Shown: positions 5,280 through 61,711 of the stretch, piece after piece | Position numbering within the stretch: position 1 is the stretch's first letter | How the letters are laid out: each line of letters opens with the position of its first letter | Assembly: GCA_002305115.1 (NCBI GenBank) | Contig: DBQF01000001.1 | Location: 160,916-224,915 of the forward strand | Source of the DNA: a candidate division WWE3 bacterium UBA1401 | GTDB lineage: Bacteria; Patescibacteriota; WWE3; UBA101185; UBA10185 | DNA: 64,000 nucleotides | Direction of reading: 5' to 3' | The notes under the pieces: model-generated | Databases searched by the model: none | Told to the model about the DNA's origin: nothing | The model's input: the letters and a program-made list of their open reading frames with translations, nothing else | Program-made: the position numbers and the translations under genes

Positions 5280-5282
5280 CTT

Positions 5283-9181: not shown

Positions 9182-10694
9182 ACTTGAACCGCACGATGAT
9201 GTGATTACGGCTATAAATAAACTACGTAATATTGATGATACCGGTGTAGAGATTTTTATTCCGGCAGATTCGGTGCTGCTGACGAATGGTTTGAATCTGA
9301 AGCTGCTTAAGCAGACAATTGAAGATTTAGGAAAAGTACTACACTTTGAAGTTGAAACCGAAGAGGGTCAAAACTTGCTAGATCTTCTGGAAGATCCCAG
9401 CCAGAATTTCGTGGAAGATAAACCAGGTGAACTTACGGAGGCCAAATCATTTTTTCTGAGTACCCTTTTCTCAACTATAAAAACTAAGCTTAGATTACCT
9501 TCTTTACATGTGAACTTTAACGCAAAACTTATTCTGATCTTAGGTATTTTTGGATTAATGGCGGCAGGTTTTGCGTATAAGCTAAAGGCAGACCATCGGG
9601 CGACTGTCAGAATTGTGGTGGATTCCCAGCCTTTAGCGCGAAGCGTTTCTATAAAAGTATTAGAAGGATCCAACACTAATGCTGATAGTCAGACTCTTAA
9701 AGGTATTAAGGTTGAAAAGCTGCTGACTTTGGAAAAAGAGATCGATACGACCGGTGAAAAGCTTGAAGGGGATACTGCCACCGGTACTATTACGGTTTAC
9801 AACAAAACAACGGGTTCCATAACCCTAAAGAAGGGTACAAAAGTTATTTACAAAGAAGGTGAGGATGATTTAACTTACAAGCTGGAAGATGAGTTAACTA
9901 TTCCTGCCATGGTGCCAAAGGATTCCAGTGATCCGGCTAGTGTACTAATTCCCGGTCAAGCTGATGCGCAAGTTGAAGCTGCAGATATTGGTTCTCACTA
10001 CAACATAGATGACTCTGAAACTTTAGAAATAGATGACTATAAAAAGACTGAGCTTGTTGCTTCTTCCAAAGAAAAATTTACCGGAGGAAAAAGCGAAACT
10101 GTAAAGGTAGTTGCCGAAGAAGATCTCACATCCTTATCTTCCGCGCTATTAACCGAAGCTACTAGTACTGCTGAAGAGGTATTGGCGGATTCTGTGCAAA
10201 AAAGCCAGGAATTTATAACAGGATCTACTTCGGTTGTTAAACAGAAGGAAGAATACAGTCATGATAAGGGTGAAGAAACAGAAAAAGTTAAATTAGTTGC
10301 CACTTATTTGGTCTATGGTTTAGCCTACAGTGATGATGATTTAGATAATTTAGTTAATTCTTTGGTTGATAAATATGTACCGGAGGAATTTGAAGTTTCT
10401 AAGAAAGACAGAGATGTAAAGGTAGAAATATTGGGTGCTACAGATAGCAGTGTACTATCTTCAACCGAGGCTGACCTTCAGGTTACTATCAAGACTTATG
10501 TAGTACCGCGTATTTCCGAAGATTCTCTGAAGAGTGACCTACAAGGCAAAAAACCGGAAGATGCTCAGAAAGTATTAGGTAGTTTGGGTAACATAAAAAC
10601 CTATGAGCTTAAGATTTCACCTGGTGTGCCCTTTTTACAGAAAGTGCCCGGAGACACAGATAAAATTTCTATTGATGTTGTGAAGGAGAATTAG
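9168..10694 (+). CDS. single-pass membrane protein with large acidic ectodomain, function unknown
   Basis: The start overlaps the upstream gene by 14 nt. N-terminus of about 115 aa, TM LILILGIFGLMAAGFAY, then about 370 aa of Thr/Lys/Glu-rich beta-type sequence. Confidence 0.6.
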   Translation: MTRIELEPHDDVITAINKLRNIDDTGVEIFIPADSVLLTNGLNLKLLKQTIEDLGKVLHFEVETEEGQNLLDLLEDPSQNFVEDKPGELTEAKSFFLSTLFSTIKTKLRLPSLHVNFNAKLILILGIFGLMAAGFAYKLKADHRATVRIVVDSQPLARSVSIKVLEGSNTNADSQTLKGIKVEKLLTLEKEIDTTGEKLEGDTATGTITVYNKTTGSITLKKGTKVIYKEGEDDLTYKLEDELTIPAMVPKDSSDPASVLIPGQADAQVEAADIGSHYNIDDSETLEIDDYKKTELVASSKEKFTGGKSETVKVVAEEDLTSLSSALLTEATSTAEEVLADSVQKSQEFITGSTSVVKQKEEYSHDKGEETEKVKLVATYLVYGLAYSDDDLDNLVNSLVDKYVPEEFEVSKKDRDVKVEILGATDSSVLSSTEADLQVTIKTYVVPRISEDSLKSDLQGKKPEDAQKVLGSLGNIKTYELKISPGVPFLQKVPGDTDKISIDVVKEN

Positions 10695-14140: not shown

Positions 14141-15139
14141 ATGGATAAACAAATAATTGTTACTATACGAACGATACTTATTGCGTTTCTACTTGTATTA
14201 GGTGCCTATGTCTTATACAGACTTGGTCCGGTTATTGGTCTGTTTATTATTTCCCTGATCATTGTTATTTCAGTTGAACACGCCGTTAAAAAGTTGATGC
14301 AAGTCACTTTTTTAAATAAACCCTTAAATAGGGGTACTGCAGTGGTTTTAACTTATCTTCTGATAGTTTTAGTTCTCCTGGCAATATTTACTATAGGGTT
14401 GCCTCCGGTTTTAATGCAGGCGCAGAGTTTATTATCCAGCATTTCCACATTGCCCGAGACCTTACAGATCGGTAAAAATATTGAGATTTCATTAGTTGAT
14501 TTGGTCCCGCAATTCTCAGAATTATCCCGAAACCTGTTCTCGGCCACTTACTCGATATTTTCCCAGTTTACCGCTATTGTAAGTATTCTTGTTATCTCTA
14601 TCTACATGTCTATTGACTGGCTGAACCTAAAGAGTCTTTTTATAAATCTCTTTCCGGAATACTTAAGGGATGAGGTTGATGACATTATTTATTCTGTTGA
14701 ACAAAACGTTGGTCACTGGGTTAAAGGCCAGTTGGTACTCATGCTGCTTGTAGGTGCTATGAGCTTTGCAGCGTTAGTCTTACTTGGTATTAGGTATCCT
14801 TTGCCATTGGCTTTATTAGCAGGGTTGCTAGAAGTCATTCCAATTTTAGGCCCAGTAATTTCTGTGGTTTTGGCAAGTATTGTGGCTTTTGTGCAGGCAC
14901 CTGTTAAAGGGGTGTTAGTGTTTGCCGCCTTTGTGGTCATTCAGCAGATAGAAAACAATTTGCTTGTACCCAAAGTTATGCAAAAAGTTTCAGGCTTTAG
15001 CCCGTTAGTAATACTTTTTGCAGTACTTACAGGCACGAGGTTTTTTGGTGTGATTGGTGCCATTTTAGCAGTACCTGTAGTTATGATTGTTGTTGTAATT
15101 GTGAGAAGAATTTTAGGATATCCCAGAAACGATTCATAA
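14141..15139 (+). CDS. AI-2E family transporter (UPF0118, PerM/TqsA-like)
   Basis: Polytopic protein. LLEVIPILGPVISVV and QQIENNLLVPKVMQK are family signatures. Confidence 0.85.
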   Translation: MDKQIIVTIRTILIAFLLVLGAYVLYRLGPVIGLFIISLIIVISVEHAVKKLMQVTFLNKPLNRGTAVVLTYLLIVLVLLAIFTIGLPPVLMQAQSLLSSISTLPETLQIGKNIEISLVDLVPQFSELSRNLFSATYSIFSQFTAIVSILVISIYMSIDWLNLKSLFINLFPEYLRDEVDDIIYSVEQNVGHWVKGQLVLMLLVGAMSFAALVLLGIRYPLPLALLAGLLEVIPILGPVISVVLASIVAFVQAPVKGVLVFAAFVVIQQIENNLLVPKVMQKVSGFSPLVILFAVLTGTRFFGVIGAILAVPVVMIVVVIVRRILGYPRNDS

Positions 15140-15466
15140 GCAGGAAGCCGGTAAGCCAAATTCTGTTTTATACAGCCATCTGTCTAAGCTCCATCTTTAT
15201 ACCAATGCCGGGCCGGCTTTTTATGGTAAGTTCGTGGATTGCTGCAGGTGGGATTGCCCGTTTCACACTTTTTCCATGGCCAAGAGGCGTTAGGAAAAAG
15301 CTCGTCTCTGTTGCTCTCAGAGGGTGTTAATTCGCCCTCTGTTTCTAAGCCATTTCTAGCCTAAAACACCAGCACTTACGTGTCGGAAGTTGCCTTCCGT
15401 CCCTCTGCCCTATGCAGTTTGGACTTTCCTCGATCGCTAAGCGACCGCGGCTGTGTGGCTTCCTGC
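15140..15466 (-). ncRNA. rnpB: RNase P RNA, bacterial type A, compact (about 327 nt)
   Basis: The reverse complement reads GCAGGAAGCC...GAGGAAAGTCCAAACTGCATAGGGCAG...GAGAGCAACAGAGA...ACAGAATTTGGCTTACCGGCTTCCTGC. This is collinear with E. coli M1 RNA conserved regions. The P1 strands 15457-15466 and 15140-15149 are perfectly complementary. A TGcTAGAAT box ends 7 nt upstream of the 5' G. Confidence 0.88.
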
Positions 15467-17132: not shown

Positions 17133-17843
17133 TTACTTCAATTCATAAGTAACAGTTAGGGTTACGGTGTCTTGCGATGTGCCGGGTACAATACCACCTC
17201 CGCCGCCCATCGGTCTGGATTCCATAAAGTTGTATGTTGGCACACTATACCCTTCCACAATATTCACAATTGCCCCAACACTTCTGCCTTCACTCTTTGC
17301 AATCATTACCGCCTTCTCTCTAGCATTTTCCAGTGCCTTATCGTAATAAACCTGCGCATTGGCTCCTTCCGCATCCTGATAAAAATTAGGTCCATTAACG
17401 CTACTTGCGTCAACCGTGCTTAATAGTTCTGATAATTCTGTTACTCTGTTTACATCCCGCAACGTAATTTCCAAACTATTTGTTACCTGCCAGTCACCTT
17501 TTCTAAATTTTTGCACGCCATTGTCATAGTAAGGTTCTTCTCTCTGATAAATATTGATGGATTGAGTTTGCAAATCCTCTTCCGGAATACCAAATTCTTT
17601 AACCCTGGCAATAATAGTTTCCATAGTTTGAGTGACACCTTCCACAGCCTGTGCTTTATCTGCGTTTGTGTCTTCTACGGATACTGAAAATCTAGCTATG
17701 TTATTACTTTCCAGCTGAGAGTATTCACCTACTACTGTAATTAGGTCTTTATTAAAGACTCGAAAGCCTTGCCACTTAAATACAACATAAAATGCTAAAA
17801 CTGTAAGAAATGCTATAAGGAATAGAGTAGTAAGTTTTTTCAT
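17133..17843 (-). CDS. SIMPL/DUF541 domain protein, membrane anchored
   Basis: N-terminal anchor LTTLFLIAFLTVLAFYVVF. DUF541-like pattern including the C-terminal TVTLTVTYEL. Confidence 0.75.
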   Translation of the reverse strand: MKKLTTLFLIAFLTVLAFYVVFKWQGFRVFNKDLITVVGEYSQLESNNIARFSVSVEDTNADKAQAVEGVTQTMETIIARVKEFGIPEEDLQTQSINIYQREEPYYDNGVQKFRKGDWQVTNSLEITLRDVNRVTELSELLSTVDASSVNGPNFYQDAEGANAQVYYDKALENAREKAVMIAKSEGRSVGAIVNIVEGYSVPTYNFMESRPMGGGGGIVPGTSQDTVTLTVTYELK

Positions 17844-17849
17844 ACTAAA

Positions 17850-17858
17850 AGTTTAGCA
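17850..17858 (-). promoter_or_regulatory. extended -10 box for the leaderless SIMPL gene
   Basis: TGcTAAACT on the minus strand ends 6 nt before ATG 17843. Confidence 0.5.
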
Positions 17859-17942
17859 TACATTTTTAGTTCTCCTGGCTTCTTATGTTTTTCTTACGGC
17901 TATCTAACCCGCTACTTAAGCGTGTTCACTAGCATCTTACTT

Positions 17943-18614
17943 ATGGAGCAAGTAAAAGCAGCTGTTCTAGATGAACTGAAACTGGATAGTAGGGTAAATG
18001 TAGACAATATAACGGTGACAGTAGAAGATGATGGCGCAGTTGTGCTAACTGGTACAGTTCCTTCTTTTGCTGCTAGGCATGCCGCAGAAGATGCCGCGTG
18101 GCGGGTATTAGGTGTTTCCTTTGTTGAAAATGATCTTGATGTTAAGTACCAAGACCACCTTGAATTACCATCAGACGAAGAATTGCAGGAAAGGATTGAA
18201 AAAGTATTAAGTTGGGATCCTGAAATGACTGCTGAGGATATTGCTGTTCAGGTTGTTGCGGGAAGGGTTATTCTAAAAGGTTCTGTTGACGCCTACTGGA
18301 AATTGCTTAGAGCAGAAAGAATAGCCACTAGTGTTATTGGTGTTATGGGTGTTGATAATTATCTTAGTGTAGTTCCCACGCATGACTTTGTTGATGAAGA
18401 AATAGCCGATGATATTGTTTCGGCTTTTGAACGGAATTTATATATCGATCCTGAAAGCGTGCATGTGACGGTTGCAAATGGCGTAGTAACTTTAGAAGGA
18501 AGTGTGCCCGATTTTGTAGCCTGGCGGGCAGCATATGATGCCGCAGCTGCCACTCATGGGGTACTAGACATTGTTGATAATCTCAATATTAGTTCTGAGT
18601 ATGGGGAAGACTAG
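17943..18614 (+). CDS. BON domain protein (three BON repeats)
   Basis: Three repeats: VTVEDDGAVVLTGTVPSFAARHAAEDAAWRVLGV, VVAGRVILKGSVDAYWKLLRAERIATSVIGV and VTVANGVVTLEGSVPDFVAWRAAYDAAAATHGV. ATG 17943 is preferred over GTG 17922 because TAGCAT lies 7 nt upstream. Confidence 0.75.
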   Translation: MEQVKAAVLDELKLDSRVNVDNITVTVEDDGAVVLTGTVPSFAARHAAEDAAWRVLGVSFVENDLDVKYQDHLELPSDEELQERIEKVLSWDPEMTAEDIAVQVVAGRVILKGSVDAYWKLLRAERIATSVIGVMGVDNYLSVVPTHDFVDEEIADDIVSAFERNLYIDPESVHVTVANGVVTLEGSVPDFVAWRAAYDAAAATHGVLDIVDNLNISSEYGED

Positions 18615-19332
18615 CCTTTAACTGTAGTGCATTCTCTATCGCAAAACCTTCTGTGTCATTATTAAAGTATATGTAAACACCCAACTGCGTTTTTTGCCAG
18701 CCTGTTATTTTTTGAGCCCACGCTTGGATTTGCTCTGCCGAATATTTTCCCGAGTAGTTGCCGCGCGTTCCGTGCAGTCTGACATACACGAAGTCTGCCG
18801 TTATAACTTCTGGAGGAGGCGCGTTAGTGTGATCGTGTATGCATAGGGCGCAGTTGTGTTTCTCCAATAATTCAAAAATTTGTTTTGTGTACCAGGTGCT
18901 GTTTCTAAATTCAAAGGCGTATTGATTGCTTTTTGGAAGTTTAGTTAGGAAATCTTTGAGTCTTTGGCGATTTATAGCCCATCTTGGTGGTAGTTGGAAC
19001 AGAATTGGCCCAAGTTTATTCTGTAAGCCCTGAAATCGTTCTGCTTGAATATATAAAGACTCGGGTGCTTTTAGATATTTTCTATGTGTTATATAACTGT
19101 TGGCTTTTACAGCAAACAGGAAATTGTCTGGTACTTTTTTGTACCAATTCTCAAAAGTTTCATTTCTGGGAAGCATATAGAAAGTGTTATTTAGTTCTAC
19201 TGTGTCAAAAGTTTGTGCGTAAAAGGATAGCCACTCTGATTGGTTAAGCTGAGGTGGATAGAATTTGTCTCTCCAGTGTTTATAAGTCCAACCGGAGGTT
19301 CCGATTCTCGGGCACATATGTGTAGAGTACAT
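18589..19332 (-). CDS. DUF72 (UPF0759) family protein
   Basis: GTSGWTYKHWRDKFYP N-terminus and the overall DUF72 pattern. ATG 19332 lies 6 nt after TACTAT; the track start is GTG 19335. Confidence 0.85.
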   Translation of the reverse strand: MYSTHMCPRIGTSGWTYKHWRDKFYPPQLNQSEWLSFYAQTFDTVELNNTFYMLPRNETFENWYKKVPDNFLFAVKANSYITHRKYLKAPESLYIQAERFQGLQNKLGPILFQLPPRWAINRQRLKDFLTKLPKSNQYAFEFRNSTWYTKQIFELLEKHNCALCIHDHTNAPPPEVITADFVYVRLHGTRGNYSGKYSAEQIQAWAQKITGWQKTQLGVYIYFNNDTEGFAIENALQLKASLPHTQN

Positions 19333-19755
19333 CACCCCATAGTACTTGACAATGCATACATCCTGTAGTATTATTAATGTATTGAAAATTGCATATATAG
19401 TTTGCGAGCAGAATTCTGCCTGTAAGGTACGGAAATACGGTGTCCACCTACCTTGGAAGAATCTTATTTTCTGTCCATAACCGGAGAAGAGACAGCGGTC
19501 CTACCGGCCATTACAGACAGGCTTTTGCTTGTAAATACAAAGTTTATAGAAAGGAGACTTATTTTAAAAAATCGTTTTAAGACAGGATGAGGCTGTCTGT
19601 AACCTACCTTTATAGATGGCTTCATCTGTTTGTAAATGATTTTCTGCCACCAGAAAGATGCCTGTATACGCCAAAGAGTAGAAGGTAGGACTACTTTTGT
19701 ATGCAGGCGTCTTTTTGGTTCTATAACTTTTTTTCACCCATGTACCCATCTTGAA

Positions 19756-19784
19756 TTGTTTTCCTATACCTTATAGTATATAAT
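19756..19784 (+). promoter_or_regulatory. sigma70-type promoter, island cassette 1
   Basis: TTGTTT, 17-nt spacer, TATAAT (19779-19784), with TAGT just upstream of the -10 box. Confidence 0.55.
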
Positions 19785-19846
19785 GCACGTCAGTGTGGGC
19801 ATTCCTCATGCCCTAAAAATCCAATCTACCTAAGGAGGTCTGAGAC

Positions 19847-20317
19847 ATGTTTCGAAAAATTTATCTAGTTTTGGTTATTTTGCTGGTGCTTTTGTTTGTT
19901 GGGTGTGAGGCCGATTCGTCAAGCGGCGACGCTGCCCCGGCGGAGGATTCCTCTGGCGGAGCGCAACCTGTCCGCGCCGAAGCCACCCCCACCCCAACTT
20001 CGGAAGGCAGATGGCTTGATCCCATACATTTACATAACCAATATGGGGATTTCACTGTCAAAGTTAAGGTTGATAAACATGATTATGTGGAGCTGGTTGA
20101 AGTACGTACCGAAAAGCTGGTGGACGGGTTCAATCTCCGCCGCATATCATACTATCCTGAGGAAGATGATCTGAATCCCATACACGCCGATGGTGACCGC
20201 TTCTACGCGGTATGGCCGTGGCCGGAAAGCACAAATGGGTTTTTCAGATTTACTTTTGAAAGGGTGTCGGATGGAGTGGAATTACAGCTAAACGTCATAG
20301 TTGATTTGGTCCGCTGA
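19847..20317 (+). CDS. orphan lipoprotein (156 aa)
   Basis: AGGAGG SD at 19833-19838. Signal peptide with lipobox LLFVGC, a Ser/Ala/Pro-rich linker, then a beta-rich domain. Confidence 0.7.
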   Translation: MFRKIYLVLVILLVLLFVGCEADSSSGDAAPAEDSSGGAQPVRAEATPTPTSEGRWLDPIHLHNQYGDFTVKVKVDKHDYVELVEVRTEKLVDGFNLRRISYYPEEDDLNPIHADGDRFYAVWPWPESTNGFFRFTFERVSDGVELQLNVIVDLVR

Positions 20318-20329
20318 GGATTATCGAGT

Positions 20330-20376
20330 GCCTGGTGGCTTTGGATTTTATCCATGGTTGCCAGGCCTTTATTTTT
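20330..20376 (+). terminator. intrinsic terminator, cassette 1
   Basis: GCCTGG...CCAGGC extended imperfect hairpin followed by CTTTATTTTT. Confidence 0.55.
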
Positions 20377-20377
20377 C

Positions 20378-20406
20378 TTGACTTTAACAGCCCCATAGTA
20401 TATAAT
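20378..20406 (+). promoter_or_regulatory. sigma70-type promoter, island cassette 2
   Basis: TTGACT, 17-nt spacer, TATAAT (20401-20406), with TAGT upstream of the -10 box. Confidence 0.6.
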
Positions 20407-20464
20407 CCACAATATCACAATCAGGGCACCACAAGTGCCCCAATTTTTTTCATGGGAGAAGACA

Positions 20465-20866
20465 ATGAAGAATTTCCGATGGCTTTTGGTATTGCTGACT
20501 GGTGTAGTTTTGTTTGCCGGCTGCATTGGTGATTTCACAGAATTTGTGCCGGCGAGTGGGTCTTGGGATTTCGAAAAGTCTCTTGATTCGATTAACGACA
20601 TCAAGTTGTTGGTCGAGTCCGATGGTGTCGGTAACCTGACTGTCGAGGTACTGACCCCGGGTCAGGAATTCAAGTCTTGCACCATCAGTCTGCGCGATGG
20701 GGACACTGTGCTCCAAGAGGTTAGTCTGGGAAGTTTTACTGACAGCACAAGCTGCACGTTAGCTTACTCAGATGAGGAGTGTACAATCTGTGTTTCCTTG
20801 GAGGATGACGAGAATGGTGGAACTTCCACTTTCTCTGTAGCCCTCTATCCACGCGAGAACCAGTAG
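20465..20866 (+). CDS. orphan lipoprotein (133 aa)
   Basis: MKNFRWLLVLLTGVVLFAGC signal peptide with lipobox. GGGAGAAG lies upstream of ATG 20465. The GTG 20435 start lies inside the leader hairpin and was rejected. Confidence 0.7.
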   Translation: MKNFRWLLVLLTGVVLFAGCIGDFTEFVPASGSWDFEKSLDSINDIKLLVESDGVGNLTVEVLTPGQEFKSCTISLRDGDTVLQEVSLGSFTDSTSCTLAYSDEECTICVSLEDDENGGTSTFSVALYPRENQ

Positions 20867-20873
20867 CTATCAA

Positions 20874-20923
20874 GCGCCGAAAAGGCATTGGACACTGTCC
20901 TCCTTTTTGGCGCTTTTCTTTTT
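20874..20923 (+). terminator. intrinsic terminator, cassette 2
   Basis: 12-bp stem GCGCCGAAAAGG/CCTTTTTGGCGC followed by a TTTTCTTTTT run. Confidence 0.65.
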
Positions 20924-20943
20924 CCCAGAATTACCACTCCCAT

Positions 20944-20972
20944 TTGTACCCTTACCCCCATAGTGCTATTAT
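20944..20972 (+). promoter_or_regulatory. sigma70-type promoter, island cassette 3
   Basis: TTGTAC, 17-nt spacer, TATTAT (20967-20972), with TAGT upstream of the -10 box. Confidence 0.5.
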
Positions 20973-21006
20973 GTGTTTTACCCATAGGACCTATAGGAGG
21001 TGACAT

Positions 21007-21348
21007 ATGCCATATGCACAAGCTTATTGTGACAGGTGTGGCAGGAGAGTTCTTCGCCAAGTGACAAAGGGTAGTGTCACTATACCGTGTGACAAGTGTG
21101 GCGCGGATGCGACAATTGATTGGAGTACAGATATCTCCAAAAGAAAGATGCATGTGAGGGCAAACAATGTCAAGCACAGACAGGCAAATGTTCGATGCCC
21201 TTACTGTGGTAATTATGCGTTACTTTGGATAAGAGAAGGCGCATCCACTGTACGGTGTAATAATCCCCCGCCCTTTTGCGGCAGGGAGATTCTGGTATGT
21301 CCAAAGTATGTGCAGTATTTGGATGAGGATGATGGAGAGTTAATTTAG
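21007..21348 (+). CDS. orphan cytoplasmic zinc-ribbon protein (113 aa)
   Basis: AGGAGG SD. Three CxxC pairs (CDRC, CDKC, CPYC) plus two further Cys (RCNNPPPFC). No signal peptide. Confidence 0.65.
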   Translation: MPYAQAYCDRCGRRVLRQVTKGSVTIPCDKCGADATIDWSTDISKRKMHVRANNVKHRQANVRCPYCGNYALLWIREGASTVRCNNPPPFCGREILVCPKYVQYLDEDDGELI

Positions 21349-21400
21349 CGCCGGAGTGGCAATAGACACTGTTTGTTACCAACCCGGCGCTTTGAACTTT
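21348..21400 (+). terminator. intrinsic terminator, cassette 3
   Basis: GCGCCGG...CCGGCGC stem followed by TTTGAACTTTTATT. Confidence 0.55.
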
Positions 21401-21402
21401 TA

Positions 21403-21431
21403 TTGCCTTAATTACCCTGTAGTTGTATTAT
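21403..21431 (+). promoter_or_regulatory. sigma70-type promoter, island cassette 4
   Basis: TTGCCT, 17-nt spacer, TATTAT (21426-21431), with TAGT upstream. A second TATAAT at 21453-21458 is an alternative. Confidence 0.45.
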
Positions 21432-21475
21432 ACAAGCTAACTGTTCCCCAAATATAATATAGAAAGGTTGAGATC

Positions 21476-21910
21476 ATGAAGAAAACCGTTGTTGGTTTGG
21501 TGCTAGCAGCAGTGTTGCTGCTGGCAGGCTGTGCTGTGGCAGGAGACCCTATCCATGACACAGTTGCCTTTTCTCCTGAGGATGGGGAATCTTGGACAGT
21601 ACAGTCCGAAAAATCCCACGCGGATATTGAGTTCACACGCGCTGGTGACAAATTGACTGTTACTGTCACCCCCGCTGAAGACCCACCGAGCATGGTGACG
21701 GTGGATGACGCGGATGCTCAGGTGGCACCGAAGGCGTGGATCATCAAGATCTACGTGGATGGTAGCTTGGCTTACGAATCGGGGGTCACAGGGGAGACGG
21801 TTTCTTATACACTCCCAATTGTGGACAAGGATACGGAAGTAGTTGTATCACTATGGCAGGGAAACAAGGAACATTCGTACTCCTATGTTCTCAAGCCACA
21901 AGTGCCCTAA
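21476..21910 (+). CDS. orphan lipoprotein (144 aa)
   Basis: MKKTVVGLVLAAVLLLAGC signal peptide with a canonical LAGC lipobox, then a beta-rich domain. Confidence 0.7.
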   Translation: MKKTVVGLVLAAVLLLAGCAVAGDPIHDTVAFSPEDGESWTVQSEKSHADIEFTRAGDKLTVTVTPAEDPPSMVTVDDADAQVAPKAWIIKIYVDGSLAYESGVTGETVSYTLPIVDKDTEVVVSLWQGNKEHSYSYVLKPQVP

Positions 21911-21925
21911 CAGAGAAGGAGAAAG

Positions 21926-22513
21926 ATGGCACCACTTAACAAGAACGGTAAAAAGGCTCTCATTTCTAGTTGCATACTCCTGTTGTTTGTGCTGGGGGCA
22001 GTTCTATATAAAGGTGGCTCAAGGCTTGTTTCCAATTTTGGAGCAAGCTCTTCTGGCCCGGTGAGAAACCTGCCGGTTGAACTGCCTACTGATGACTCTG
22101 TAGTATCCCAGCCAACGCTGGCGCCGCTTCCTACACAGGAGAACCCAACCCCCGAACCCACTGAGGTTGTTTTTAACAAAGCAGCCTGGGCAGAGGGTTC
22201 TACGGCGATAACTCTTCCGAATGGTAAGGCTGTTACTCTGGAGTGTGTCTACAACGGGGAAATAGGCATGCTTCGCATAAACAAGCCCAACCTTCCCGGT
22301 CTTCGGGAAGTAAGAGTGAACATTGGCCAGATGTTGCATCAGGACAATTATACGTCCTGGGTTGCTCCTGACAGCATAATCTGGAACTCTACTGACTTGT
22401 CCTGGATGCAAAACTTGCGTATGGATGGCGTAAACATCCATGTTGGAAGTAGTATCGAGGTTATTGCCTTCTATGCCAATGGCTCCATTTCTTTGCATTG
22501 TACTGCCCAATGA
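21926..22513 (+). CDS. orphan signal-anchored protein with Pro/Thr linker (195 aa)
   Basis: AAGGAG SD 15 nt after the previous stop, so it is co-transcribed. TM ALISSCILLLFVLGAVLY, linker PTLAPLPTQENPTPEPTE, beta-rich C-terminal domain. Confidence 0.65.
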   Translation: MAPLNKNGKKALISSCILLLFVLGAVLYKGGSRLVSNFGASSSGPVRNLPVELPTDDSVVSQPTLAPLPTQENPTPEPTEVVFNKAAWAEGSTAITLPNGKAVTLECVYNGEIGMLRINKPNLPGLREVRVNIGQMLHQDNYTSWVAPDSIIWNSTDLSWMQNLRMDGVNIHVGSSIEVIAFYANGSISLHCTAQ

Positions 22514-22521
22514 CCACTTGC

Positions 22522-22569
22522 GCGGGGAGGGAGAGATCTCCTGCCGTCTTTTCCTCCCTTCCGCTTTTT
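22522..22569 (+). terminator. intrinsic terminator, cassette 4
   Basis: GC-rich stem GCGGGGAGGGAG.../...CTCCCTTCCGC followed by TTTTT. It is homologous to the terminator at 23232-23281. Confidence 0.55.
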
Positions 22570-22596
22570 GCAAATATAGCCCTATAGTTATATAAT
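22568..22596 (+). promoter_or_regulatory. sigma70-type promoter, island cassette 5
   Basis: TTGCAA, 17-nt spacer, TATAAT (22591-22596), with TAGT upstream of the -10 box. Confidence 0.6.
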
Positions 22597-22634
22597 GTTG
22601 CAAATTCTACACAATGTGTTCCAGAGGAGGAACA

Positions 22635-23225
22635 ATGGATAACACAGGACGCGCGCTTTTTTTTACCCTTGTTGCTTTGTTTTTTTTATGGCTTGCCGTT
22701 GTTTATGGGGGTCTATCCGTACCAGCATCCGAAGGTGTTTCCAGCTATGCCAATGAGGCTGTTGGTGAGAGTTCTCAGCCTATAGTTGTTCCTACGCAAA
22801 TTCCAACTGCTAGGCCTACCAAGGAACCCGTCTTCCTCCTCACCATAGGAGATGATGAAGACACGGCAACTCCTACCACAGTGCCCCTACCGACCCCCCT
22901 GCCCCCCACGGTGTTGCCTCAAGAAGACACTGATGTACAGACCTGGCAGGCTTTACACATCGTAGGGGAATACAAGGTGACATATGAGTACTGGGGGGGT
23001 TGGTTTATAGTAACAATCAAAACTAACAACCCTGCGCGTATTCGAGTCACCTTTGACGGGTCTGATCCTTGCACCAACTGGGCCATGGCGTCGATGAACA
23101 TGCTCCAGTTTGGTACCTATAGCACTGCCAGTTATGAGAAGAAGGTAATGCCTCGTGGTACAGTTGTGCGGGTATGTATTCAGTTCGATGACCAAAAAAT
23201 CGAAGACACTATGGTCATCGAATAG
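22635..23225 (+). CDS. orphan signal-anchored protein with Pro/Thr linker (196 aa)
   Basis: GAGGAGG SD precedes ATG 22635; ATG 22614 has no SD. TM ALFFTLVALFFLWLAVVY, linker PTQIPTARPTKEP...PTTVPLPTPLPPTVLP, beta-rich C-terminal domain. Confidence 0.65.
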   Translation: MDNTGRALFFTLVALFFLWLAVVYGGLSVPASEGVSSYANEAVGESSQPIVVPTQIPTARPTKEPVFLLTIGDDEDTATPTTVPLPTPLPPTVLPQEDTDVQTWQALHIVGEYKVTYEYWGGWFIVTIKTNNPARIRVTFDGSDPCTNWAMASMNMLQFGTYSTASYEKKVMPRGTVVRVCIQFDDQKIEDTMVIE

Positions 23226-23231
23226 CCTGCT

Positions 23232-23281
23232 GCGCGGGAAGAGAGGTGTCCTACACATCCCTTTTCCCGCCGCTTTGTTTT
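23232..23281. terminator. intrinsic terminator, cassette 5; possibly bidirectional
   Basis: Long stem GCGCGGGAAGAGAGG/CCCTTTTCCCGCCGC followed by TTTGTTTT. It lies 6 nt from the stop of the convergent 23287..24309 gene. Confidence 0.55.
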
Positions 23282-23286
23282 AGAGC

Positions 23287-24309
23287 TTAATCCAAGACCT
23301 CAAACCTAACCCCATAACGGGACAAAAACCCCTTCATCCCTTCCCAGCCCTCACTCTCACTAAACCTAGTTTCCTTACTCTTAATATCAAACCAACACTT
23401 ACCAGTTACATCCAGTGCCTTTCTAGTTTCTTCACTAATACCTTCAAGTACCACATAAACATTCCCTTCAAACTCTGTCATACCTTCCAAAGACTTCTTA
23501 TACATATATCTTGTTGAATTTACTGACACAGTAATACCCTTCTCCACGTCACTAATTGCTGCGGGCTCGCCTTTGAATTCACAAAACTCTGCAAATGATC
23601 TGAAAATTGTTAGTAACATCTCATGCTTTTTCTCTGCCGAAGGCTCCCTAATAAACTGTCTGCCCCTTAATAACACCTTTGCTGGAAACCCCGATGCCAA
23701 TGAGTGATCTGGAATATTTGCAGTTACCACCGAATTAGCCCCAATAACACTACCTTCCCCAATTTCCACATTAGGCAAAATAAACACCCGCCAAGGCAGC
23801 CACACTTTTTTCCTGATTGTAACCGGGCCAAACGTTACAGGATAACCATCCAGCATAGATAACCACGAACTATGTGTAAAAATATAACTGCCACCGCCAA
23901 CTCCAACGTCATCTTCCAAAATAATTGGCTCAGTGGGGTTAATAAAACTAAAAGAAAAAATTTTGGCCCGCTTTCCCATACTAAGCTTTGATCTGGGTGT
24001 TAACATACCGCCAATAGTTACCTGATCTAAAATAATTGAGTCATCATCCATTTCAAGCTCTGCCAGTTCTGCCGCCACCATCATCTTAATACTCACCCGT
24101 TTGCCCAGTTTTATCTTGTGGGCATCGATATAACAAATATGCCCAATTTTTGTATAATCGCCGATTTCTATTTCTTTAGCATTTAGTATGGAAAAAAAGC
24201 CAAACGAAACATGCTTTCCTATCTTGGCTCCTTTTGCTTTGTAATACAGCTTTTTTAATGGAGACGGCAACAAACCGATGGTTGCCATCTTGATAACCGG
24301 AACGGCCAT
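23287..24309 (-). CDS. left-handed beta-helix (hexapeptide-repeat) acyltransferase with extra C-terminal domain
   Basis: Hexapeptide stretches GAKIGKHVSFGFFSILNAKEIEIGDYTKIG and PNVEIGEGSVIGANSVVTANIP, plus a non-LbH C-terminus of about 100 aa. Confidence 0.75.
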   Translation of the reverse strand: MAVPVIKMATIGLLPSPLKKLYYKAKGAKIGKHVSFGFFSILNAKEIEIGDYTKIGHICYIDAHKIKLGKRVSIKMMVAAELAELEMDDDSIILDQVTIGGMLTPRSKLSMGKRAKIFSFSFINPTEPIILEDDVGVGGGSYIFTHSSWLSMLDGYPVTFGPVTIRKKVWLPWRVFILPNVEIGEGSVIGANSVVTANIPDHSLASGFPAKVLLRGRQFIREPSAEKKHEMLLTIFRSFAEFCEFKGEPAAISDVEKGITVSVNSTRYMYKKSLEGMTEFEGNVYVVLEGISEETRKALDVTGKCWFDIKSKETRFSESEGWEGMKGFLSRYGVRFEVLD

Positions 24310-24310
24310 A

Positions 24311-24679
24311 TTAATCCTTTCTAACCACTACAGCTACAGCCACACACATGCCTGCAGCGTGAGTTAAACTAACTTGTGTAACGTACTTAGAGGCTAACTG
24401 TTCAGGCAAATGTGCAAATGGTACGCCAGATTCATTATTAGTTATTTCTACCCCCTTACAATGAATATTAAACTCATCCAGAGAGTTCAAGGCTTTAATA
24501 ACAGCTTCCTTGCAGCAAAACCTCACGCCTAAATGCTGAGCAGGTTCTTTTTTTCCAAAACAATAAGCAAGTTCTTTTTTCGTGAAGATTTTGTCTAGGA
24601 AAGTCTGGTTAGGCCTATCCTCAGTTTCGCTAAATTTTTGACTGTCCTGAATATCTATGCCAATGCCAAATGTATTCAT
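24311..24679 (-). CDS. acpS: holo-ACP synthase (4'-phosphopantetheinyl transferase)
   Basis: GIGIDIQD, FTKKELAYC, CKEAVIKAL and VSLTHAAGMCVAVAVV. ATG 24679 overlaps the upstream stop as ATGA. Confidence 0.8.
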   Translation of the reverse strand: MNTFGIGIDIQDSQKFSETEDRPNQTFLDKIFTKKELAYCFGKKEPAQHLGVRFCCKEAVIKALNSLDEFNIHCKGVEITNNESGVPFAHLPEQLASKYVTQVSLTHAAGMCVAVAVVVRKD

Positions 24680-25902
24680 ACAACAAGCTCTACTTTGCGG
24701 GCAAAAGTTGCTAATAAATCTAGTCCGTCCCAATAATTAGAAAACGTAAGTGCTTGGCCGAAGGGCACTACCCTACAAATCCCTCTGGGCTTATTTTCCT
24801 TAATAAACGTGCTCAACTGTTCCTTAGTGATACCAAAGGCGCTAAGTGTCTGATCTTTGGTTTTAAGAAAGTTACCCAGTTCTGCTAATTCACTAATAGT
24901 TGTTTCATAAAAAAGCCCACCTCCACAATGGGCATCTCTGGAAATATCTTCAAAAGACTCAATGAAAACTCGGTTAATAGCATTAGAGGCGCTTTGTTCT
25001 ACCGTAACCTGACTTTTAGCATTGAATATGGTTTGCACTTCAGCAGTTAGCTTTTGTACTGCTACAGCCGGTTGGACTGGTACATTCTTTGTTGTTATAT
25101 ATTCTTCCAGTAACTGCCAGAAAATGTTTCTTGCCGGTGTAATGTCTTTTTCCGCACCACACCATACCACAAGTCTTGGTGATGAACAGGCATTTTGATC
25201 AAACCAGAATGCGTCGTTATAAAAATATGCAATTGTTTCCTCCTTATTTGTATGGGCTAACCACTGTTGAGCATCAATTACTGCATAAGAAAATCTGTCT
25301 GGAAAAACTACTTCTAGTGCTGTAGGGTTAAGTTCTAGTGCCCTAATACTTTTGATAGTTGCGTCGCCACCCCAGATAATACGTAAATCACATTGCTTAG
25401 AGAAAAACTCTGTTACTTCCGTATCGTGCCCATACCTTAGTAAGGCAGTTGTGTTTCTAAGTTGCTCAAATTGTTCTTGAGCTAGTATATTATTCAAAAT
25501 TGCCAGTAAGGTCTCAAGCTGGTCACTGGTTTTAGAAGAGAGTCTTACAATGTTAGTGTTACCTACCAGCAAGGAGATAAACCAGGAGTACACAAAAATT
25601 GTGTCTACGTTTGCCGGGGCTATATGAAAAGCCAAGCCTCTAGGTACTTGAATGTAATCTGCGTTACTGTTTATAAACTGTTCTTGTAGTTGCTTTATGT
25701 GTGCTGATCGCATCCAATAGGCTAAGGCAATAAGTTCAGGATATTTTCTTAAACTGTGGTCTTTCAAAATTGTTTCCGAAACGATATTTATAAACTGCAG
25801 GGTAATTTTTTCAAAAGGCTCTAGCGGTTGTGCCGCCACTACTTTGGCAAGATCACCTGTGAGTGGGCATATAAGTTTGACTTTATCCTTAAATATATCC
25901 AT
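24676..25902 (-). CDS. LuxC-family acyl-CoA/acyl-protein reductase
   Basis: HIAPANVDTIFVYSWFISLLVGNTNIVRLSSK and DQNACSSPRLVVW (catalytic Cys region). ATG 25902 lies 1 nt after the upstream stop. The 25989 start would overlap the previous gene by 86 nt. Confidence 0.8.
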   Translation of the reverse strand: MDIFKDKVKLICPLTGDLAKVVAAQPLEPFEKITLQFINIVSETILKDHSLRKYPELIALAYWMRSAHIKQLQEQFINSNADYIQVPRGLAFHIAPANVDTIFVYSWFISLLVGNTNIVRLSSKTSDQLETLLAILNNILAQEQFEQLRNTTALLRYGHDTEVTEFFSKQCDLRIIWGGDATIKSIRALELNPTALEVVFPDRFSYAVIDAQQWLAHTNKEETIAYFYNDAFWFDQNACSSPRLVVWCGAEKDITPARNIFWQLLEEYITTKNVPVQPAVAVQKLTAEVQTIFNAKSQVTVEQSASNAINRVFIESFEDISRDAHCGGGLFYETTISELAELGNFLKTKDQTLSAFGITKEQLSTFIKENKPRGICRVVPFGQALTFSNYWDGLDLLATFARKVELVV

Positions 25903-25903
25903 G

Positions 25904-26971
25904 CTAAACAGCGGCTGTATCACTACAGCCCCTAAGTTCCGCTTTGGGAATGCGGCCGGCGACCCTGAAATATTTGCCGTATCTGCCACAAGGGCAAGTA
26001 TCTTCCCCCATTATAGTACCAAAGTCTTCGGTAAGAAGTATGTGGCCGGGATAACTGTGTGGCAACACGGAAAGTATTTCGATGATGCCTTGGGTACCAT
26101 GCGGGAGTATTTGCCAATTGGCAGGATCCCTTATAAGTATGTCCGAAAAAACGGAAGTGTGGAAGTTGCCTTCTTCACATTCCATAAAAACAGAACCTAC
26201 CTGTTCGGCCATGCCGTAAAAATTATATACATGTTTAATACTCAATTGTTCTTTTAAGTGCGCTTTAAATGTGCCATTATCCACGCTTTGTTCTATTAGC
26301 TTTTTCCACCCGCCACTATGAACTAAGATGGCATTTGATAAATCTAATTTGATGTTTTTAGCAGTCAACTCTTTATACAAATATAGCCAAACCAGATAGG
26401 TAAACCCAAAAATCAAATTTGGCTCATTTTTGTACTTTTCTGCAAACTCCAGTAGTCCCTCGATATCCATGTTCATGTCTTCGTCTAGCAGGTAAAAGTG
26501 ATTTTTTCCAAAAGTAGCAAACCCTAAAACACCAGCACCTCTGGCGGAAAAGCTTTCTTTATCTTTAAAGACCGCTTTTGTATCTACAAATATGGTGGGT
26601 AGCCGTTCTTTGCCTATAAAATCTTGCACAATATGGGCCAGCGCCTTGGTTTGTCTTTCTGAGGTTAGCTTGTCTAAATAAATAGCCGAGGGGGTTTGCC
26701 CGGTAGTGCCTGAGGATTTAAGTATTTTAATAACGGCACTTTCGTTAACGCTTGTTAGCTTGTTTGTCTTAAAGACCGTTACCGGCAAGAACGGGAAGTC
26801 CTCGACTGCCGTTAAGTTGCTTGGATCACAAAAAGCTTTTGCAAACTTACTATATTCAGGGCAATTTGCTATGTGATGTTGGGTTACCGCTGTTAAGGCT
26901 TCCAAAAACAACGGTTTTTTCTGCGCTGCTTTTAAGCTAAATGGTGGATAGCCAAATAAATCTTCTATCAT
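25904..26971 (-). CDS. LuxE-family acyl-protein synthetase
   Basis: SSGTTGQTPSAIYLD and the overall LuxE pattern. 4-nt overlap with the upstream ligase gene. Confidence 0.8.
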   Translation of the reverse strand: MIEDLFGYPPFSLKAAQKKPLFLEALTAVTQHHIANCPEYSKFAKAFCDPSNLTAVEDFPFLPVTVFKTNKLTSVNESAVIKILKSSGTTGQTPSAIYLDKLTSERQTKALAHIVQDFIGKERLPTIFVDTKAVFKDKESFSARGAGVLGFATFGKNHFYLLDEDMNMDIEGLLEFAEKYKNEPNLIFGFTYLVWLYLYKELTAKNIKLDLSNAILVHSGGWKKLIEQSVDNGTFKAHLKEQLSIKHVYNFYGMAEQVGSVFMECEEGNFHTSVFSDILIRDPANWQILPHGTQGIIEILSVLPHSYPGHILLTEDFGTIMGEDTCPCGRYGKYFRVAGRIPKAELRGCSDTAAV

Positions 26972-28380
26972 ACTGTTACATTCCTAAATATCTGTTCGTA
27001 AGCCATTTTTCCGGTACCGGTTCGTGCTAGTTCCTCTACATAAACGATGGTAATTACGTTGGGGTTTAGCTTATATTTTTGCTGCAGTTGCCTTTTTAGT
27101 TCTTTTTCCGGTACTTGTTTAGTGAAAGCAATACATAAGGCGTCATCTTTACCTCCACAAGCGCATTCGTAGCCCTGTTGTTTCAAAAAATTTTCTAGGT
27201 CATCAAGGTTAAATAAAACGCCCATCATTTTCAAAAAGCGCTTACGTCTGCCAGTAATATAGCAAAAGCCATCTTCATCAAAATGTGCAATATCTCCGGT
27301 AAGAAGTGTGCCATTTTGCTCATCTCCTTTAGCTAAATCTGTTCGGGAAGTTGCATAGCCCATCATGACATTTACACCTCTGTATACTAGTTCCCCGTCA
27401 ATAAATGGTTTGGTTATAGTGTTGCCATTGGTGTTTATTATGCTCAGGTTGCCCCCCGGAATGGCTTTTCCTACACTTGTAGGTTTTACCAAAGTATACT
27501 CTGGTGGTAAGTAAGCTATGCGGGCAGTAGCCTCTGTCTGTCCGTACATAACATAAAACTTTATACCTTTTGTTTGGGCATAGCTTCCAAAGTCTTGCAC
27601 GAGCTGCGCGTTAAGTTTACCTCCTGCTTGAGTCATATATCTTAGACTAGGAAGTTCCATATCTAGAAAGCCTATTCTTTTTAGTAGTTCGTAAGTGTAT
27701 GGAACTCCGCTAAAAGAAGTAGCTTGCTGGTCTTTAAAAAATTGCCAGAAATCTTTGGTGATAACTGAGTGGTCTGTTAACAGCATAGTAGCCCCGGCTA
27801 ACAAGTGGCTATTTAAAATTGACAAACCGTAGGTATAGTTTAGCGGAAGCGTAGTTATAGCTTTTTCCGAACGGGTAATTGCTAAATAAGCTACTATGGC
27901 TTGCGCATTAGCTAGCACACTTTCACCTTTAAGCCTTACCAGCTTAGGGTTGCCTGTACTTCCGGAAGTTGATAGTAACAAGTTTAGGTCCGGGTTCAGT
28001 TGTTCTTCACTAGGCTTAGGGTTTTGAACTAGTTGATAGTTTGCGTGAGTATAGATAGCCTTGTCACCAAATGTATTGGTGTTTTTCGGTTCCCAAATGT
28101 AATCCGGCTGATATGTATCTACCAAATTAGCCAACAGCTGTACATCTATATCAGCAGCAAGTAGCAAGGCCACATTATCTGATCTTAGCGTGCCAAGATA
28201 TCCGGCTATAGCTACTACAGTATTTGTGCAAAGGATAAACACTAAATTCTTTGGTTTTGCTGTAAGTTGCCTGGCGAAGGTGTCTGCAAGTGTGGCAAGT
28301 TTGCTGTACGAAATACTTTCTAAACCGGTAACTAACGCAGTACTTTCTGCAAATTTTTCAATGGAATCAAAAACTTTCAC
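26968..28380 (-). CDS. AMP-dependent synthetase/ligase (adenylate-forming, acyl or aminoacyl loading)
   Basis: LLSTSGSTGNPKLVRL, YGQTEAT, TGDIAHFDEDGFCYITGRRKRFLK and C-terminal GTGKMAY. Confidence 0.85.
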   Translation of the reverse strand: MKVFDSIEKFAESTALVTGLESISYSKLATLADTFARQLTAKPKNLVFILCTNTVVAIAGYLGTLRSDNVALLLAADIDVQLLANLVDTYQPDYIWEPKNTNTFGDKAIYTHANYQLVQNPKPSEEQLNPDLNLLLSTSGSTGNPKLVRLKGESVLANAQAIVAYLAITRSEKAITTLPLNYTYGLSILNSHLLAGATMLLTDHSVITKDFWQFFKDQQATSFSGVPYTYELLKRIGFLDMELPSLRYMTQAGGKLNAQLVQDFGSYAQTKGIKFYVMYGQTEATARIAYLPPEYTLVKPTSVGKAIPGGNLSIINTNGNTITKPFIDGELVYRGVNVMMGYATSRTDLAKGDEQNGTLLTGDIAHFDEDGFCYITGRRKRFLKMMGVLFNLDDLENFLKQQGYECACGGKDDALCIAFTKQVPEKELKRQLQQKYKLNPNVITIVYVEELARTGTGKMAYEQIFRNVTV

Positions 28381-29135
28381 ACAAGCATCCCCCCGTTAAC
28401 ACCTATTACCTGCCCGGTAACATAGGATGCTAAGTCGGAGGCTAGATATAAAGCACCGCCCGCAATATCTTCCGGAGTACCTATCCTGCCAAGTTTGATG
28501 GCGTTAAGTTTTTCGGTAAAAGCTTGTTCCGGAATTGATCTGGCCATAGCTGTGTCGATAAAGCCCGGAGCTATGGCATTTACACGTACATTGTATCTAG
28601 CCAGTTCTTTTGCCGCAGATTTAGTGAGCCCAACTACTGCCGCCTTGGTTCCGCTATATGCTACTTGTCCAATATTACCTTCTACCCCCACAATAGACGC
28701 CAGATTGATAATGCTCCCTTGTTTTTGCTTCATCATTATTCTGGAAGCATATTGCATGCAGTAAATTGTGCCAAAGACATTAACTGAAAATAGCTTGGTA
28801 AGAATATCCGGGGAAATCATTGGCAATAGTGCATCTATCATAATGCCAGCATTATTTACTAAAACGTCCAGTTTCTCAGAATGTGCTTTAACCTTGTCAA
28901 ATGCTTGCTTAACTTGCTCACTATTGGAAACATCAAAGTATAGGGGAGTTATTTCCACTTGATATTTGTCTGTTAATGCTGTGGCTATACTATCCAAGCT
29001 GCCTTCCACTACATCATTGGCAAATACCGCAGCACCATTTTGAGCAAACATTTCCAGAATACCCTTACCAATACCTTGTGAGCAGCCAGTTATTAGTGCT
29101 ACTTTACCTGCAAGTAACTTAGAAGTTAACACCAT
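28377..29135 (-). CDS. short-chain dehydrogenase, 3-oxoacyl-ACP reductase (FabG)-like
   Basis: GKVALITGCSQGIGKG, NNAG and YSGTKAAVVGLTK (YxxxK). ATG 29135 overlaps the ACP gene by 17 nt; the track start 29165 would overlap by 47 nt. Confidence 0.85.
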   Translation of the reverse strand: MVLTSKLLAGKVALITGCSQGIGKGILEMFAQNGAAVFANDVVEGSLDSIATALTDKYQVEITPLYFDVSNSEQVKQAFDKVKAHSEKLDVLVNNAGIMIDALLPMISPDILTKLFSVNVFGTIYCMQYASRIMMKQKQGSIINLASIVGVEGNIGQVAYSGTKAAVVGLTKSAAKELARYNVRVNAIAPGFIDTAMARSIPEQAFTEKLNAIKLGRIGTPEDIAGGALYLASDLASYVTGQVIGVNGGMLV

Positions 29136-29358
29136 ACTTAGTAAGAATTTCTTTAGCGGCAGCAAAAGAGCTAAGGTTGATTACGTCGTCTGTACTTAAA
29201 GTGATACTAAAAGTGTCATCAATAGCAGCAACTAAGCTCATGTGGGCAATGGAATCCCATTCGGGTAGTGAGTGATATTTTAAGTCATCGGTAATTTGCT
29301 CTAATGGCAAGCCAAGTGAATCGGCAAAAACTTGTTTTAGTTTAGAAGTAGAGTCCAT
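29119..29358 (-). CDS. acyl carrier protein
   Basis: 79 aa. LPEWDSIAHMSLV carries the DS(L/I) phosphopantetheine-attachment serine. Confidence 0.8.
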   Translation of the reverse strand: MDSTSKLKQVFADSLGLPLEQITDDLKYHSLPEWDSIAHMSLVAAIDDTFSITLSTDDVINLSSFAAAKEILTKYGVNF

Positions 29359-56870: not shown

Positions 56871-56912
56871 TGTTGCTACAGTTTATCACAGCCTCTAGTA
56901 TACTAACTAAGT

Positions 56913-58579: not shown

Positions 58580-58746
58580 ACTCTAATGATAGCAAATGTA
58601 GGATTTTGGAAGTGTGTGCTGTTACCTTGACCTTTTTTGATTACAGGGTTTTTGTTTTGGTTATTAATAAATAAAGGAATCTACACAGTCAGGAATTTTG
58701 GCGGCCTTATCCTGTCTGCACAGCGTGTAATTCTTATTGCCAGTCT

Positions 58747-61553: not shown

Positions 61554-61711
61554 GTTTTATCTTATCGGTTAACGAGTTATACTTGTGAATCCAACATAGA
61601 TTGAGCTTCTTCATACCTTTTTTGCTCCTTTAGAACCTTGTATTCTTCGAATTGCTCAGGTGGCATAAAGTATCTTTTTGTTCAGGTACTTTACTAATAT
61701 ATAATATCTAT

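Follow-up and report, generated by a model that had tools for sequence, protein, structure and literature searches.

A putatively acquired chromosomal islet of five moron-like gene cassettes in a candidate division WWE3 bacterium

Phage morons are described as units with their own promoter and factor-independent terminator and with a G+C content unlike that of their neighbours, and they often encode small lipoproteins or membrane proteins (Cumby et al. 2012; PMC3594210). A block of units built in a comparable way was found at positions 19756-23286 of a 64,000-nt stretch (the window) of contig DBQF01000001.1 from the candidate division WWE3 bacterium UBA1401, a member of the candidate phyla radiation (CPR). 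An earlier reading of this DNA (the sequence-only reading) had proposed the block to be a compositionally foreign island of five self-contained cassettes for six orphan, mostly surface-exposed small proteins. Here, the block, termed islet in the following, was analysed with regard to its expression signals, products, relatives, composition and genomic setting. We consider it rather probable that the islet was acquired horizontally by the WWE3 chromosome and consists of five autonomous moron-like cassettes, possibly together with a preceding non-coding unit.

Six open reading frames (ORFs), all on the + strand, were found in the islet and assigned to five predicted transcription units, namely P1, P2, P3, P4-P5 and P6. 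Due to the fact that the P5 start codon lies 15 nt past the P4 stop codon with no hairpin between them, P4 and P5 were read as bicistronic. Predicted promoters, all on the + strand, were located at 19756-19784 (P1, TTGTTT-17-TATAAT), 20378-20406 (P2, TTGACT-17-TATAAT), 20944-20972 (P3, TTGTAC-17-TATTAT), 21403-21431 (P4-P5, TTGCCT-17-TATTAT, with an alternative TATACA-18-TATAAT at 21429-21458) and 22568-22596 (P6, TTGCAA-17-TATAAT). Thus, all five share TTG at -35, a 17-nt spacer and either TATAAT (P1, P2 and P6) or TATTAT (P3 and P4) at -10. The match to the consensus is 11/12 for P2 and 10/12 for P6, which are near-consensus, and 9/12 for P4, and it is limited to the TTG in the -35 regions of P1 and P3, both of which were obtained by direct reading. 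The canonical promoter that had been ascribed to every unit therefore stands as a common frame, and as a near-consensus sequence for P2 and P6 only. The implied leaders of the five units are 56, 52, 28, 38 and 32 nt long, which is the range of 28-56 nt given previously. A Shine-Dalgarno (SD) site AGGAGG precedes P1 (8 nt upstream of the start), P3 and P6, and AGGAG precedes P5, whereas the sites of P2 (GGAG) and P4 (AAAGG) are weak, so that the strong SD site claimed for each unit applies to four of the genes. Folding bore out the remaining part of the proposed design, a hairpin with T-run for each unit: terminator hairpins with folding energies between -24 and -31 kcal/mol (z from -3.5 to -6.3), every one followed by a T-run, are present on the + strand after P1 (20330-20376, -30.7 kcal/mol, z -6.3), P2 (20872-20925, -25.1 kcal/mol, z -5.6), P3 (21347-21405, -25.2 kcal/mol, z -5.3), P5 (22520-22569, -26.8 kcal/mol, z -3.5) and P6 (23232-23282, -24.2 kcal/mol, z -3.7). 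A scan of both strands of the 64 kb for 50-nt hairpins revealed no comparable intergenic hairpin with T-run outside 19.3-23.3 kb.

Several regulatory parts are common to more than one cassette, which is consistent with one donor background. The -10 block of P1, ATAGTATATAAT, recurs in the P2 promoter with 15 of 16 positions identical, the left arms of the P2 and P3 terminators agree at 21 of 26 positions (81%), and the arms of the P5 and P6 terminators at 13 of 15. A 12-mer, CCACAAGTGCCC, common to the P2 leader and the 3′ end of P4 was discarded as such a part, chance expectation being sufficient to account for it. The P2 leader additionally contains a GC-rich hairpin with a T7 run (20424-20450, + strand, z -2.2) that ends 15 nt before the start codon and is a possible transcription attenuator. 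A similar hairpin, lacking the T-run, was observed in the P1 leader at about 19797-19812.

The genes of the host are organised differently. SD cores of 5 nt or more precede four of the six islet genes as compared with 3 of 48 host ORFs. In 16 of these 48 a -10 hexamer is located 4-12 nt ahead of the start codon, as is characteristic of leaderless mRNAs, and many of the remaining ones overlap the preceding gene. The same leaderless or overlapping design was seen in three WWE3 relatives, where first genes carry a TATAAT-like hexamer near the start and SD sites are almost confined to internal operon genes such as ftsX, which keeps GGAGG. Leaderless gene organisation in WWE3 was not reported in the literature that was searched. 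Since SD sites occur at internal genes (ftsX, and ruvX in the window with AGGAG), the ribosomes of this lineage can presumably use them and the islet genes should be translatable here. The islet genes are, however, built differently from host first-in-operon genes. Taken together, both the division into five self-contained units whose regulatory design differs from the host's and the description of the flanking host units as leaderless or overlapped held up.

With regard to the products, P1 (19847-20317, + strand, 156 aa), P2 (20465-20866, + strand, 133 aa) and P4 (21476-21910, + strand, 144 aa) are predicted lipoproteins with PROSITE-type lipoboxes (PS51257) FVGC, FAGC and LAGC, in the contexts LFVGC with the lipid cysteine at residue 20, LFAGC with Cys20 and LLAGC with Cys19, respectively. 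They are the sole lipobox ORFs of the 64 kb, and their mature parts are acidic with isoelectric points (pI) of 4.0-4.5. Past the lipobox, P1 has an acidic Ser/Ala/Pro linker and a C-terminal domain of about 100 aa, while P2 contains four further cysteines. P5 (21926-22513, + strand, 195 aa) and P6 (22635-23225, + strand, 196 aa) are predicted signal-anchored proteins, each with an N-terminal hydrophobic helix, a Pro/Thr/Ser-rich stalk of 54-80 aa (80 aa in P6) and a C-terminal domain of 90-112 aa with two cysteines (112 aa in P5, 90 aa in P6). In the AlphaFold model of P6, residues 3-25 form a helix with a predicted local distance difference test score (pLDDT) of 82-92, the stalk is disordered, and low-confidence beta strands make up the C-terminal domain. 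P3 (21007-21348, + strand, 113 aa) is a basic protein (pI 8.8) with an acidic tail and without a hydrophobic segment, hence predicted to be cytoplasmic, and it contains two zinc ribbons, CxxC-x16-CxxC and CxxC-x16-C-x6-C, that are related to each other (internal repeat, z 6.7). The lipoboxes, anchors, stalks and cysteine pattern agree with the earlier assignment of three proteins as lipoproteins, two as stalked and anchored and one as a zinc-ribbon protein. Paralogy among the five extracellular domains is not detectable by Smith-Waterman comparison (z at most 2.1), and the likeness of the N-terminal parts of P5 and P6 (z 8.8) looks greater than it is on account of their membrane-helix and Pro/Thr composition. 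Type IV pilins were considered for P5 and P6 and rejected, as there was no N_methyl match and the motif with G at -1, F/M at +1 and E at +5 is missing on direct reading.

From these features the following mode of action may be proposed. Each cassette would be transcribed from its own sigma-70-type promoter up to its own intrinsic terminator, and the mRNAs with their leaders of 28-56 nt would be translated by SD-directed initiation, of which the host is presumably capable. P1, P2 and P4 would be exported and lipid-anchored via the lipobox cysteine, whereas P5 and P6 would be anchored by the N-terminal helix, with the Pro/Thr stalk holding a small beta-rich domain off the membrane. P3 would remain in the cytoplasm as a basic tandem zinc ribbon and possibly act as a nucleic-acid-binding regulator. 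The net effect would be a strain-specific change to the outer face of the membrane, encoded beside a 30-kb envelope-glycan cluster. Expression and export of the six proteins are what we infer, and, judging by the predicted localisation, a role in partner-cell contact, phage masking or exclusion is conceivable, much as host-cell contact, exclusion or receptor masking had been suggested in the sequence-only reading. A life attached to other cells is assumed for CPR bacteria, and strain-specific surface proteins are therefore likely determinants of partner choice and phage sensitivity; to our knowledge, almost none of these proteins has been characterised.

The starts of P1, P2, P4, P5 and P6 are those given in the public protein collection, and P3 as read here is not in that collection. 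Sensitive homology searches were confined to P1 and P5. A full phmmer search with P1 over 1.84 billion representatives and a search with P5 over 5.8 billion clusters returned the respective query itself only, and no record was obtained for either in an exact-protein contig look-up. At 90% identity, P1, P2, P4, P5 and P6 are all singletons from one 544-kb contig. No relative was found for P3 and P6 in JGI metagenome contigs or for P2, P3 and P4 in IMG/VR. All six proteins were without significant match in PDB, NCBIfam and PADLOC and without match over any family threshold in Pfam or PHROGs, in line with the previous statement that none carries a recognised motif. The matches of P3 to families are likewise all below threshold, the best being Lar_restr_allev (PF14354) with 23.4 bits as compared with a cut-off of 28.6, and TIGR03655 reached 13.4 as compared with 39.6. 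Several large host ORFs (346-882 aa) also lack a Pfam domain at E<=1e-5 (2868-7931, 9168-10694, 29376-31502, 48206-50101, 57227-59787 and 61652-63610), and the host flanks are poorly matched too, identity to the best homologues not exceeding 60% for MltG and 56% for DUF72. In such a sparsely sampled lineage with many unmatched host proteins, the orphan status of the six is less exceptional.

The resemblance to morons suggests that the islet might be the remnant of a decayed temperate phage or plasmid, in which true morons for lysogenic conversion or superinfection exclusion were kept as a host-beneficial block after the carrier had been deleted. The units are designed just as has been published for morons, with own promoter and terminator and deviant G+C content (PMC3594210), and small lipoproteins and membrane proteins are typical of them. 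Moreover, P3 has sub-threshold matches to Lar-like phage zinc ribbons (PF14354 with its 23.4 bits, phrog_6422 and phrog_8736). On the other hand, no phage structural, integrase, repressor or replication gene is present in the roughly 20 kb to the left or right, a PHROG family is lacking for five of the six proteins, and neither the islet DNA nor P3 matched phage and plasmid collections that included 50,697 phage records, which adds to the negative IMG/VR result. Attachment-site (att) repeats were not found, flanking direct repeats being restricted to short ones of low identity at unrelated positions. A Pfam scan of most, not all, ORFs of at least 110 aa revealed no integrase or other mobility gene and ARAGORN no tRNA or tmRNA in the 64 kb, so that the reported lack of integrase, tRNA and flanking repeat was borne out. 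We regard a phage or plasmid remnant as unlikely on this balance.

Along with its design, the nucleotide composition of the islet points to acquisition. Its G+C content is 48.0% compared with 39.8% in the remaining 60 kb, the highest value among all 3.5-kb windows of the 64 kb, and non-overlapping windows of the host have 39.8 +/- 1.1% with a maximum of 42.7%. The counts of G+C made by hand on four 60-nt lines in the sequence-only reading (44, 30, 15 and 18) were all exact on recount. G+C at third codon positions (GC3) amounts to 0.43-0.55 in the six islet genes as compared with 0.352 +/- 0.031 (maximum 0.443) in 49 host ORFs, and G+C at first and second codon positions (GC1 and GC2) is elevated likewise. 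The islet differs from the rest of the window by a tetranucleotide distance of 0.34-0.36 versus 0.165 +/- 0.021 (maximum 0.208), and with base composition normalised the distance is 0.25-0.27 versus 0.175 +/- 0.018. Pooled codon bias B is 0.304 versus 0.168 +/- 0.027 (maximum 0.269) in 2000 host pools of equal size, with codon shares in islet and host of 0.68 and 0.36 for AAG, 0.30 and 0.08 for CGC, and 0.09 and 0.25 for TTA. The islet thus lies about 5-9 standard deviations off the host in each of synonymous-site G+C, tetranucleotides and codon usage. The claim of a foreign composition is upheld by four independent statistics (G+C, GC3, tetranucleotide distance and codon bias), and in the checks of sliding G+C, tetranucleotides and codon usage that had been proposed with it the islet is an outlier.

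These data also bear on the possibility that the islet is a native, fast-evolving surface locus, in which selection for high independent expression and a Pro/Ala/Gly/Val-rich make-up would have produced the deviating signals without any transfer. Such an origin would fit the amino-acid make-up of the islet, which has moved toward V, P, D, T and G, the fast evolution of surface proteins in host-dependent bacteria, the likeness of the islet promoters to some host promoters and the orphans to be expected in so poorly sampled a lineage. However, synonymous sites deviate as well (GC3 0.50 versus 0.35; AAG and CGC codons) and the normalised tetranucleotides are about 5 standard deviations out, and the deviation in GC3, tetranucleotides and codon usage means that the shift exceeds a pure amino-acid effect. 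Furthermore, the pattern is found in no other gene of the 60 kb, the envelope-glycan genes included, and the compositional edge is sharp on both sides of the islet. A native locus without transfer is accordingly judged rather improbable.

Horizontal acquisition of the islet was further considered in the light of its surroundings. The window encodes FtsK, a RodZ-like protein, RuvX, MiaB, MiaA, an AI-2E transporter, MltG, a bifunctional-nuclease-domain protein (BFN), and SIMPL, BON and DUF72 proteins. The host was identified as WWE3 from FtsK, which shares 80% identity with its counterpart in the candidate division WWE3 bacterium UBA1379, and from MltG, whose best matches are 55-60% identical and in part named candidate division WWE3. 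The gene order MiaB-MiaA-AI2E-(RNase P RNA)-MltG-BFN continues with ftsE-ftsX-pcsB-tsaE-tsaB in two relatives, WWE3 UBA1379 and a Logan contig. In a third WWE3 genome unrelated genes set in directly after MltG, and the contigs of the two closest MltG relatives end just past MltG. Here, BFN is followed by SIMPL, BON, DUF72, the islet and the glycan cluster, and because the neighbours of BFN differ from those in the relatives, the islet sits in a rearranged, accessory stretch. The six genes are missing from the WWE3 relatives compared, which are distant (MltG 55-60% identical) and rearranged at this site. SIMPL, BON and DUF72 (17133-19335) stand in place of ftsEX-pcsB and have host-like composition; they look like an older acquisition, and the genes at 19.8-23.3 kb look like recent arrivals. 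The best homologues of DUF72 (54-56% identical) come from Bacteroidota, Acidobacteriota and other non-CPR phyla, in unrelated, non-syntenic contexts, and a scan of the genome collection with the DUF72 neighbour yielded nothing.

The gap of 510 nt between the DUF72 start and P1 holds a further predicted promoter and a candidate structured RNA. The promoter-like sequence TTGACA-17-TATTAT (19346-19374, + strand, 11/12 matches) would belong to a non-coding unit; it stands back-to-back with the -10 region of the divergent DUF72 gene, and its own -10 region resembles that of the P4 promoter. The RNA candidate (19380-19725, + strand, 346 nt) is predicted to form three long hairpins, the last of which is terminator-like, consisting of an A-tract, a stem and GTCTTTTTGG. 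Its minimum free energy is -128 kcal/mol (z -8.4, and z -8.0 in a separate control), whereas the opposite strand gave -89 kcal/mol (z -3.5). In the same control, the RNase P RNA of the window had a z of -5.5 and other intergenic regions ranged from -2.4 to +1.7. As the reverse strand folds far less strongly and 14% of the pairs are G.U, the RNA would be read from the + strand. Its G+C content is host-like (about 40%). No Rfam match was obtained even at E<=1 by the method that recovers the divergent RNase P RNA, no SD-led ORF was seen by eye, and a second copy was present neither in the window nor in the relatives' loci compared. An antisense role on the islet mRNAs was discarded, since there is no special complementarity to the leaders (z -0.6 to +1.6). 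The previously proposed bounds stand for the block of 19756-23286, and with the additional non-coding unit as a putative member the array would begin at about 19346. One could go further and regard the whole of 19346-23286 as a new compact CPR surface-remodelling module, taken up without an integrase, e.g. by natural transformation, with SD-led terminated cassettes insulated from the leaderless host regime and with the RNA as a new regulatory class, but this we hold to be quite improbable.

An assembly chimera, i.e. a 3.5-kb foreign piece misjoined into the contig of a metagenome-assembled genome, would suit the apparently metagenome-derived source and the abrupt switch of composition and gene signals, but it is very improbable, as two false joins would be needed within one 544-kb contig. 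Moreover, both junctions are tight and look functional: on the left, promoters stand back-to-back with that of DUF72, and on the right, 5 nt separate the end of the P6 terminator from the stop codon of the LbH acyltransferase gene, which is convergent to P6. The proteins are also recorded in two sources, namely NCBI and Logan.

Several points weigh against acquisition of a moron-like islet with a surface function. The islet is accompanied by no mobility gene, tRNA, att-like repeat or phage gene, the genome is overall rich in unmatched proteins, and the ATAGT-N-TATAAT flavour of the islet promoters also occurs at a few host promoters, which could reflect adaptation to the host or a related donor. 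The single-sequence AlphaFold models are poor (pLDDT 45 for P6 and 53 for P3), too low for fold comparison, and would not back any function. As neither a donor nor a close relative was found, acquisition is argued from composition and design.

To the right of the islet, the envelope-glycan cluster of about 30 kb is headed by an operon on the - strand (23287-29165) for an LbH acyltransferase, a 4'-phosphopantetheinyl transferase (ACPS), a LuxC-like acyl-CoA reductase, a LuxE-like acyl-protein synthetase, an AMP-binding acyl-AMP ligase and a FabG-like reductase. It was noted that these genes make up an acyl-activation/reduction set. The CPR lineage is understood to have limited lipid biosynthesis. 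In addition, an ORF of 162 aa at 56382-57226 (- strand) matches only the C-terminal half of the AI-2E family (profile 182-323 of 327) and has a gap of 356 nt upstream; as the intact AI-2E gene lies at 14141-15139, the ORF is probably a truncated or frameshifted paralogue of it. The RNase P RNA (RF00010) at 15136-15466 (- strand) scores 91.8 bits, below the gathering score of 100, and is therefore missed by a default Rfam scan; the intergenic region that contains it shows conservation and many compensatory pairs across five WWE3 genomes.

The islet provides six small, clearly bounded and probably well expressed candidate proteins. On the present data it stands alone as an unmatched islet of one genome, which limits its general significance, and wider interest would arise only if the block or its RNA proves to be a recurrent module.

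Among the known systems, an integron cassette array was rejected, since the units have their own promoters, the hairpins are terminators without the GTTRRRY core and no integrase is present. A diversity-generating retroelement was rejected as well, with no long repeat in or around the islet and no reverse transcriptase domain among the scanned proteins. A defence system was dismissed on the lack of a PADLOC match, and known RNA families were considered for the islet region, none of which fits. With Lar-type proteins (PF14354), P3 shares the CxxC...CxxC ribbon spacing and a weak profile match in both halves, but it differs from Lar in being a tandem ribbon with an acidic tail, 113 aa long in total, and its 23.4 bits remain below 28.6. 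The exclusion lipoproteins Cor, Llp and Ltp are likewise small, acidic, surface-exposed and encoded as independent units. The only matches to this group are below threshold, N-terminal and mainly confined to the signal peptide, as with residues 1-59 of P4 and phrog_1119 (Cor, E 0.005), and the mature domains are without homology.

Like the phage morons HK97 gene 15, lambda bor and lom, the islet has one or two genes per unit, a predicted promoter and terminator for each and a deviant G+C content, and calling it the stretch least explained by known feature types was overstated in view of this textbook unit design. In contrast to phage morons, it is situated between chromosomal housekeeping and glycan genes, lacks phage gene matches, comprises five tandem units in a CPR host and has no sequence relation to any moron product. 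As the phage context is missing, the islet would work like a set of morons and is not classed as one. With genomic islets or ORFan islands it shares a short, deviant block whose genes have no detected homologues and which coincides with a break in synteny beside a variable envelope-glycan cluster, and it is probably a well-delimited, recent representative of this ordinary kind of genomic islet. Unlike genomic islands with integrase, tRNA target and direct repeats, it is marked by SD-led initiation in a leaderless host, and it thereby offers a clean case in which the mode of initiation (SD leader versus leaderless), beyond composition, marks foreign DNA, a criterion that could be of use genome-wide in leaderless lineages.

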